Sequence record: PP079211.1
Source of the DNA: Escherichia phage phiHAO1-1
Strand: one strand, 5' to 3'
DNA length: 40,137 nt
Shown here: positions 9,437-10,292 of the stretch, piece after piece
Position numbering within the stretch: the stretch's first letter is position 1
How the letters are laid out: each line of letters begins with the position of its first letter
The notes under the pieces: model-generated
Databases searched by the model: none
Seen by the model: the letters and a program-made list of their open reading frames with translations, nothing else
Told to the model about the DNA's origin: nothing
Made by a program: the position numbers and the translations under genes

Positions 9437-9888
9437 TGGCCCAATGGTCTGCAAAACGGGGGCACTCTGTGGGTGCCTACCGCTCTGGACTTGAAGCCAA
9501 GAACCAGCAGTGGCTGGAACAGAACGGCGTCAAAGCGGAGTACGAAAGCCATTATATCAACTATGTGATTCCGGCTTCCGACCACAAGTACACACCAGAC
9601 TTTATCCTTCCTAACGGTATCATCGTGGAGACAAAAGGTATCTTTGATAGCGATGACCGTAAGAAGCACCTTCTGGTACGAGAACAGCACCCAGAGTTAG
9701 ACATTCGGTTCGTGTTCTCAAGTTCACGCTCCAAGTTATACAAAGGGTCTCCGACCACGTATGGTGCATGGTGCGAAAAGAACGGCTTTAAGTTTGCCGA
9801 TAAATTCATCCCGGTTGAGTGGCTTCGAGAGGCGACTGTACGTATGCCTTCAGGTATACTCATTCCAAAGAAGAAAGGAGTTAAGTGA
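9436..9888 (+). CDS. Endonuclease I, Holliday-junction resolvase (T7 gp3 homolog)
   Basis: 150 aa; YTPDFILPNGIIVETKG and DDRKKHLLVREQHPELDIRFVFSSSRSKLYKGSPT match T7 gp3; TAATG overlap with gp2.5. Confidence 0.93.
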   Translation: MAQWSAKRGHSVGAYRSGLEAKNQQWLEQNGVKAEYESHYINYVIPASDHKYTPDFILPNGIIVETKGIFDSDDRKKHLLVREQHPELDIRFVFSSSRSKLYKGSPTTYGAWCEKNGFKFADKFIPVEWLREATVRMPSGILIPKKKGVK

Positions 9889-10292
9889 TGAGTAAGACTT
9901 ATCGTGTTCTAAATACGTTTTGGAACCGTTCCGTTGCGGAAATGCTAAGCAAGTACTGCGCGCCAATTGGTGAGACCTTTGTTGCTACCGAAGAGAACCA
10001 CGAATTCATCAACGGTATGTTCCGCTGGCGCTTTGAGGAAGTGAAACCTGAAGTCCACTCTGTGACTGCGGTTCCTGAAGTTTCCATCACCCGTAAGCGC
10101 CTGACAATCGACAAGATTGCCGTGGGTCAGACGTTCATCGTCCACGGCAAGCCTGACGAAGTTTACGTGAAGATTAGCAACTCACACGTCTTCAATCATA
10201 AGCGTCTCCAGATGCACACCACGGACGCACAAAGATTCACCCAGCACCTGAATCTAGTGGTAGTAGAATTGGTGGTGTACAATGGTAAGTAA
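9885..10292 (+). CDS. Hypothetical protein (135 aa) between endonuclease I and lysozyme
   Basis: Start-stop coupled to gp3 (TGATGA) and overlaps the lysozyme start; no family recognised. Confidence 0.5.
   Translation: MMSKTYRVLNTFWNRSVAEMLSKYCAPIGETFVATEENHEFINGMFRWRFEEVKPEVHSVTAVPEVSITRKRLTIDKIAVGQTFIVHGKPDEVYVKISNSHVFNHKRLQMHTTDAQRFTQHLNLVVVELVVYNGK

Follow-up and report, generated by a model that had tools for sequence, protein, structure and literature searches.

Gene 3.2 of Escherichia phage phiHAO1-1 encodes a constant C-terminal domain joined to an exchangeable N-terminal cassette

The Escherichia phage phiHAO1-1 belongs to the genus Kayfunavirus, the K1F-like members of the T7-like phages. 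The window analyzed here is the whole stretch of 40,137 nt (PP079211.1), and all positions refer to it unless another sequence is named. Between the genes encoding endonuclease I (gene 3) and lysozyme (gene 3.5) lies a further gene in the forward direction, the ortholog of K1F gp3.2 (CAJ29361), which is annotated as gene 3.2 in K1F and is so named here. The features of the locus are as follows:

8677..8699, forward strand: copy of the phage RNA-polymerase promoter, 5′ of gene 2.5 (repeat family CTAAACTATCACTATAGG)
9436..9888, forward strand: gene 3, endonuclease I, directly 5′ of gene 3.2 (Pfam Phage_endo_I, E 8.6e-82)
9874..9880, forward strand: Shine-Dalgarno sequence AAAGGAG for gene 3.2, read from the sequence within the last codons of gene 3
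9888..10292, forward strand: gene 3.2 coding sequence, 134 a.a. plus TAA, with the A of its ATG shared with the gene 3 TGA
10271-10277, forward strand: ribosome-binding site GGTGGTG of gene 3.5, within the final codons of gene 3.2, as is the gene 3.5 start
10282..10740, forward strand: gene 3.5, lysozyme/amidase (Amidase_2 and PHROG 822, both from residue 1)

A preliminary description of this DNA had placed a 135-a.a. open reading frame (ORF) here, with the GTG at 9885 as its start, as given in the ORF list. The gene itself stands, at a position conserved in 219 phage records, but its start does not. In K1F and many relatives, GAA stands where phiHAO1-1 has this GTG, which is therefore not conserved, and the start kept across relatives is the ATG at 9888-9890, 7 nt after AAAGGAG, giving the product of 134 a.a. 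The start context AAAGGAG[T/C]TAAG(TG/AA)ATG was identical in all 26 loci examined. The coupling to gene 3 through the sequence TGATGA and the 11-nt overlap with the lysozyme gene were both as first described, with the gene 3 stop codon (TGA, 9886-9888) sharing one base with the gene 3.2 start, and the gene 3.2 stop codon (TAA, 10290-10292) lying beyond the gene 3.5 ATG at 10282. In T7 phage, gene 3 (10257-10706) runs straight into gene 3.5 (10706-11161) with no gene between, so gene 3.2 was rightly seen as an addition relative to T7. Wrongly set boundaries of gene 3 or gene 3.5, which would have made the ORF an artefact, were not found: the family matches of both neighbours are full-length, with the gene 3 product matching Phage_endo_I over positions 1-147 of 149.

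Copies of the phage promoter occur at 8677 and then at 10977 (10977-10996, a weaker variant, ACTATCACCTTAGGGA), with none between them and none inside gene 3.2 in a scan for the repeat family. Given this lack of an internal promoter, genes 2.5, 3, 3.2, 3.5 and 3.7 form one class II unit, in agreement with the operon membership proposed earlier. Matches resembling sigma-70 promoters or terminators at the locus were at chance level only, and Rfam RNA families gave no match over positions 8500-11500. Across the window, we noted 10-11 forward-strand copies of the promoter core CTAAACTATCACTATAGG (2595, 5663, 7697, 8677, 10977, 17459, 20279, 21259, 25903, 33179 and 39436). A separate repeat, TTAGACTCAAGGTCAT...GTGGCCTTTATGATTA, occurs in three intergenic forward-strand copies (5677-5733, 13134-13179 and 37028-37084), and we take it to resemble the sites that RNase III processes in T7-like phages.

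The order of gene 3 followed by gene 3.2 was also seen in two divergent contigs (L030 and L031) and in the Providencia phage PSTCR2. In PSTCR2-like phages, two other ORFs lie between the gene 3.2 homolog and the lysozyme gene, and the coupling to gene 3 is kept. Over the last 64 codons of gene 3.2 in 26 loci, the median dN/dS was 0.13, with dS up to ~1.3. Gene 3.2 is a genuine protein-coding gene in the 2.5-3-3.2-3.5 class II unit, and its constant C-terminal domain is under strong purifying selection.

The 1.4-kb stretch around gene 3.2 is 99.9% identical to the Escherichia phage phiHAO2-2 and ~95% identical to K1F, and the gene 3.2 product is 100% identical to HAO2_gp17 of phiHAO2-2, which is annotated as a hypothetical protein. 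Beyond K1F gp3.2 and phiHAO2-2 gp17, the orthologs include EcoDS1 gp3.2, Dev2 gp3.2 and gene 3.01 of CR8 and CR44b. A protein search found 257 homologs. Of 50,697 phage records searched by tblastn, 219 contain the protein, at 220 places (one per record in all records but one); wherever the rows were annotated, it lay beside the endonuclease I and lysozyme genes. The carriers are almost all Kayfunavirus, joined by the Caroctavirus CR8 and the Providencia phage PSTCR2. The surrounding DNA region is common to 222 phage records, and gene 3.2 is thus close to core for the genus, being present in 219 of the ~222 records with the region. Its absence from T7, noted at the outset, holds; it is no oddity of one genome, as nearly every Kayfunavirus has it.

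The family is narrow, given that an exhaustive phmmer search of 1.84 billion cluster representatives returned only 13 matches, 11 of them members of the gene 3.2 family. The other two, a 2195-a.a. repeat protein with DUF11-like repeats (recognized by eye) and a 473-a.a. tandem-repeat protein, were judged spurious. A profile search with alignment A3, which mixes two subfamilies (Kayfunavirus/Caroctavirus and Providencia-phage, 30-34% identical overall), gave no further relatives. The phiHAO1-1 protein itself has the profile match, the position and coupling, and all of the invariant core residues that mark the family.

As gene 3.2 is already catalogued in K1F, with annotations in hundreds of relatives, and an identical protein has been deposited, it is not novel as an entity. 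In a study of Citrobacter SH phages (PMC4925675), gene 3.2 appears in the gene table only, and our search of the literature on gp3.2 and on hypervariable, anti-defence or escape-mutant loci of Kayfunavirus returned nothing beyond that table. As far as could be found, the cassette architecture and the invariant patch described below have not been reported in the searchable literature.

The preliminary description recognized no domain in the product, and database searches agreed. Neither the gene 3.2 protein nor representatives with other cassettes gave anything above threshold in Pfam, NCBIfam or PADLOC. Against the PDB sequences, profile A3 had no match and profile A1 had none below E 0.5. In PHROGs, only two families matched, PHROG 15211 (E 1.3e-42) and PHROG 16385 (E 7.2e-42), over a.a. 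47-134, and both are labelled 'unknown function'. A weak profile match to SorB was rejected. Although the T7 genes 2.8 and 3.8, which encode HNH proteins, occupy slots neighbouring that of gene 3.2, an identity as an HNH or homing endonuclease was likewise rejected, with no HNH or His-Me finger match in the gene 3.2 protein in Pfam.

The product consists of two parts joined by a Pro/Val-rich linker, with an N-terminal cassette that recombines at fixed boundaries. The parts of the gene are as follows:

9888..10043, forward strand: N-terminal domain (head), a.a. 1-52, a rare 'type 1' cassette (AlphaFold2; pI 5.7)
9897..10099, forward strand: exchangeable DNA cassette, ~a.a. 4-70, comprising N-terminal domain and linker (blastn against 8 related loci)
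10044..10091, forward strand: Pro/Val/Ser/Thr-rich linker KPEVHSVTAVPEVSIT, a.a. 53-68, of low model confidence and with no regular secondary structure
10092..10289, forward strand: constant C-terminal domain, a.a. 69-134, predicted SH3-like beta-barrel (pI 10.0)
10176..10238, forward strand: invariant polar patch SNSHxFN...QMHxT...RF (S97-N103, Q108-T112, R116 and F117)

In a blastn comparison with 8 related loci, the DNA similarity to K1F-type relatives ends at 9891-9907, depending on the relative, and returns at 10092-10100, with the flanks of the cassette 77-96% identical to those of the relatives. At the protein level, the C-terminal 65-85 residues are nearly invariant among homologs and the N-termini are unrelated, such that the domain before the barrel is swapped or missing among phages that are otherwise 90-95% identical. 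A second version of the linker, KPQVLPASSVPPVTV, is found in other cassette types. There is also a 74-a.a. form with no cassette, in which the flanks are joined by ~20 nt; it is carried by most Salmonella Typhi phages, Dev2, SH4 and Pisces, among others.

The N-terminal parts cluster into six populated families plus singletons, and hhalign among the six revealed no kinship beyond the shared first residues (probability ≤13%). Five types were counted across GenBank phage records:

K1F type: 56 records
LNA3/Pipis type: 27 records
PRF-SP1 type: 21 records
ZH4 type: 2 records
phiHAO1-1 type: 3 records, namely phiHAO2-2 and the Citrobacter phage CR8 (two accessions)

The phiHAO1-1 type is therefore rare, known from these two GenBank phages and from ten clusters in protein sets. 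None of the five types occurs in about half of the 219 records, which have short forms or further types. In tblastn, a cassette matched once per record, beside the endonuclease I gene wherever the record was annotated. Most carriers of the K1F type are E. coli phages, and most of those with the PRF-SP1 type are Salmonella phages; however, an association of cassettes with hosts cannot be shown from this, because cassette type is confounded with phage lineage.

Heads may also be stacked or damaged. The metagenomic protein P0123 (226 a.a.) carries two cassettes in tandem, and the proteins P0054, P0029 and P0164 have natural in-frame deletions or frameshifts inside the head with an intact C-terminal domain. 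The Providencia-phage subfamily follows an analogous plan with its own heads and linker, and with a C-terminal domain 30-34% identical to that of phiHAO1-1. In PSTCR2, a free-standing 117-a.a. ORF lies 3′ of the gene 3.2 homolog (L027:2759-3112), and the same ORF reappears as a fused N-terminal head in the metagenomic relative P0163; therefore, heads move between stand-alone and fused states. In the Salmonella phage PRF-SP1 (MZ923531.2), we noted an HNH_3 homing endonuclease gene (E 9.8e-15; 10646-11095, L032:1095-1544) exactly at the junction of genes 3.2 and 3.5, overlapping the end of gene 3.2 as gene 3.5 does. This insertion suggests homing-endonuclease traffic at the locus.

Heads evolve faster than the C-terminal domain. 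In the same genome pairs, the K1F-type head showed dN/dS values of 0.35-0.5, compared to 0.05-0.3 for the C-terminal domain. Between the phiHAO1-1 head and that of CR8, dS was saturated and dN/dS could not be computed. The linker is conserved, with a dN of 0.03 and a dS of 0.40 relative to CR8.

The head of phiHAO1-1 was predicted with high confidence by AlphaFold2 using the full alignment (pLDDT 90-95 over a.a. 1-50), as a small alpha/beta domain with a strand at 2-7, helices at 11-15 and 17-23, and strands at 30-35 and 49-51. It is mildly acidic, and most heads in the family are acidic or neutral. The tail was left uncertain in that model. With the trimmed alignment A3, the tail reached a mean pLDDT of 82 (86-93 over model residues 11-60), as a predicted barrel of five to six strands. 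The C-terminal domain is basic in both subfamilies, with a pI of 9.1 in the Providencia subfamily.

Across both subfamilies, G80, F83, Y93, S97, N98, S99, H100, F102, N103, Q108, M109, H110, T112, R116 and F117 are invariant, with V101 and T111 nearly so within the patch. Going by the model's secondary-structure string, the SNS triplet belongs to the loop preceding strand 4 (a distal loop, in SH3 terms), with the remaining residues in strands 4 and 5 or in the short helix after them. The patch would thus be polar and partly basic, as modelled. Conserved cysteines and known catalytic motifs are absent.

The closest known system is gene 3.2 of K1F itself, which likewise lies between genes 3 and 3.5 and begins in an identical start context, with 70-89% identity in the C-terminal domain between phiHAO1-1 and the K1F-like orthologs; its cassette, however, is unrelated to the rare phiHAO1-1 type. 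Fold neighbours of the tail include the barrels of L2, EF-P/KOW, Spt5 KOW and integrase C-terminal domains, and the matches are generic. SH3-like small barrels in general (FeoA, EF-P domain I, KOW, L2 C-terminal, Tudor and chromo-like) show no sequence similarity to it (4-15% identity) and share no motif with it. Their scores indicate no more than a generic likeness of fold, which does not allow a function to be transferred from them.

Small, fast-evolving early and middle genes of the T7 group that lack enzymatic domains often encode host-interaction factors, such as Ocr (gp0.3), gp2, gp5.5 and gp5.9. By analogy, gene 3.2 may be compared with these four, being likewise small, non-enzymatic, patchy among genera and placed among class I/II genes; however, none of them has homology to gene 3.2 or combines a constant domain with interchangeable heads. 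In tail fibers, receptor-binding tips are exchanged on a constant shaft, and gene 3.2 would resemble them in having unrelated specificity modules swapped at fixed joints on a constant module. It differs in being a small non-structural class II gene whose variable part is N-terminal and sometimes absent.

Taken as a whole, we infer that the gene 3.2 protein could act as a tethered adaptor, because it combines a constant, constrained barrel and a conserved linker with folded, fast-evolving heads that are swapped, stacked or dropped and that are found at no other locus. The barrel would dock, via the invariant patch, on a partner that is itself invariant among these phages, with nucleic acid, a conserved host protein, and a conserved protein of phage replication or recombination as candidates. 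The exchangeable head would bind a target that varies from one host strain to another. Host takeover or counter-defence would be the likely purpose, which we favour because gene 3.2 is a class II gene that T7 and T3 lack, and the short form would then provide a basal function only. We put this role forward tentatively, as a best guess of low confidence. Two points weigh against it: the near-core C-terminal domain is no less compatible with a housekeeping role than with an arms race, and about half of the phages manage headless, which could mean that the head is dispensable or even neutral. The broader view that a modular adaptor of a kind not described before, with at least six unrelated heads that would retarget it to different host factors or defence systems, may serve K1F-like and Providencia phages as a plug-and-play slot for counter-defence appears somewhat more doubtful still.

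The same features might be explained without a counter-defence role. The protein may instead be a nucleic-acid-binding accessory of DNA metabolism tied to endonuclease I, modulating junction resolution, host-DNA breakdown or replication, in which DNA or RNA would be bound by the basic barrel in the manner of Sso7d-type, KOW, Tudor and integrase C-terminal barrels, and the heads would be secondary, tuning modules. We regard this main rival as rather unlikely, even though gene 3.2 always lies directly 3′ of gene 3 and coupled to it (also in PSTCR2-like phages), the C-terminal domain is nearly universal in the genus and basic (pI 9.1-10) with Ser, Asn, His, Gln, Thr and Arg among its invariant residues, and barrels that bind RNA or DNA are among its fold neighbours. 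The same DNA metabolism operates with no gene 3.2 in T7, T3 and most relatives, and adjacency to gene 3 is weak evidence in phages whose gene order is generally conserved; moreover, the fold matches are generic and the free exchange of heads is left unexplained. Less probable again is that only the constant domain matters, with the cassettes as largely neutral or selfish passengers that a recombination hot spot collects, perhaps through homing-endonuclease traffic, and that the linker keeps aside. This would fit the share of records in the 74-a.a. form or outside the five types (about half), the deletions and frameshifts confined to heads in P0054, P0029 and P0164, the HNH_3 gene that PRF-SP1-type phages have where genes 3.2 and 3.5 meet, and the relaxed constraint on heads compared to the C-terminal domain. 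However, the heads keep open frames with dN/dS below 1 within a type (0.35-0.5), the head of phiHAO1-1 is predicted to be compact (pLDDT >90), the linker is itself conserved, and many independent phages retain the cassettes as separate, conserved families.

Two sub-threshold profile matches were considered and rejected, one to the MqsA antitoxin (PF15731; E 0.027, 15 bits, a.a. 16-83) and one to the Druantia protein DruB (PADLOC PDLC00003; E 9e-4, 16.3 bits, a.a. 35-118), the latter probably due to chance. That gene 3.2 is a relative of either is highly improbable: both matches run across the linker and do not follow a domain, the MqsA score reaches half of the curated 30-bit cut-off, the match to DruB was seen in only 3 of 12 A1 sequences (near-identical to one another) and in no member with another head, and the deep phmmer search gave no such relatives. 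Long chance ORFs do exist in this genome (e.g., 226 a.a. on the minus strand at 21449-22129), yet the chance that gene 3.2 is one of these, or a product of mis-set boundaries, is negligible given the full-length matches of its neighbours, the comparison with T7, the purifying selection, and the conserved start and ribosome-binding site.

Therapy-oriented studies of E. coli K1, Salmonella Typhi and other hosts make use of K1F-like phages. The cassette locus is a candidate determinant of strain-specific infection success, and its natural variants amount to allele swaps. Should the heads bind host factors, the cassette families would each indicate a distinct target.

Some further differences from related phages were noted in the window. 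Between gene 3.7 and the primase/helicase gene lies a 59-a.a. ORF (11049-11228, forward strand) with a hydrophobic N-terminus (MVTVILVLTLISGSG) and no family match, located in a 173-nt block (11052-11224) that is missing from K1F and most relatives and present in phiHAO2-2 (gp20) and in L015. A 75-a.a. ORF (23283-23510, forward strand) lies between the tail tubular genes 11 (ending at 23283) and 12 (starting at 23520) and matches Pfam DUF3850 (E 2.8e-19) and ASCH (E 1.7e-5), presumably a PUA-like fold with putative RNA binding; it is absent from phiHAO2-2, where genes 11 and 12 abut. The whole genome of phiHAO1-1 is 98-99% identical to that of phiHAO2-2 except for one insertion and mosaic blocks in the early region (1100-2400 and 5660-7620), where identity is 83-93% or there is no match, and these blocks account for most of the 840 extra bases of phiHAO1-1.
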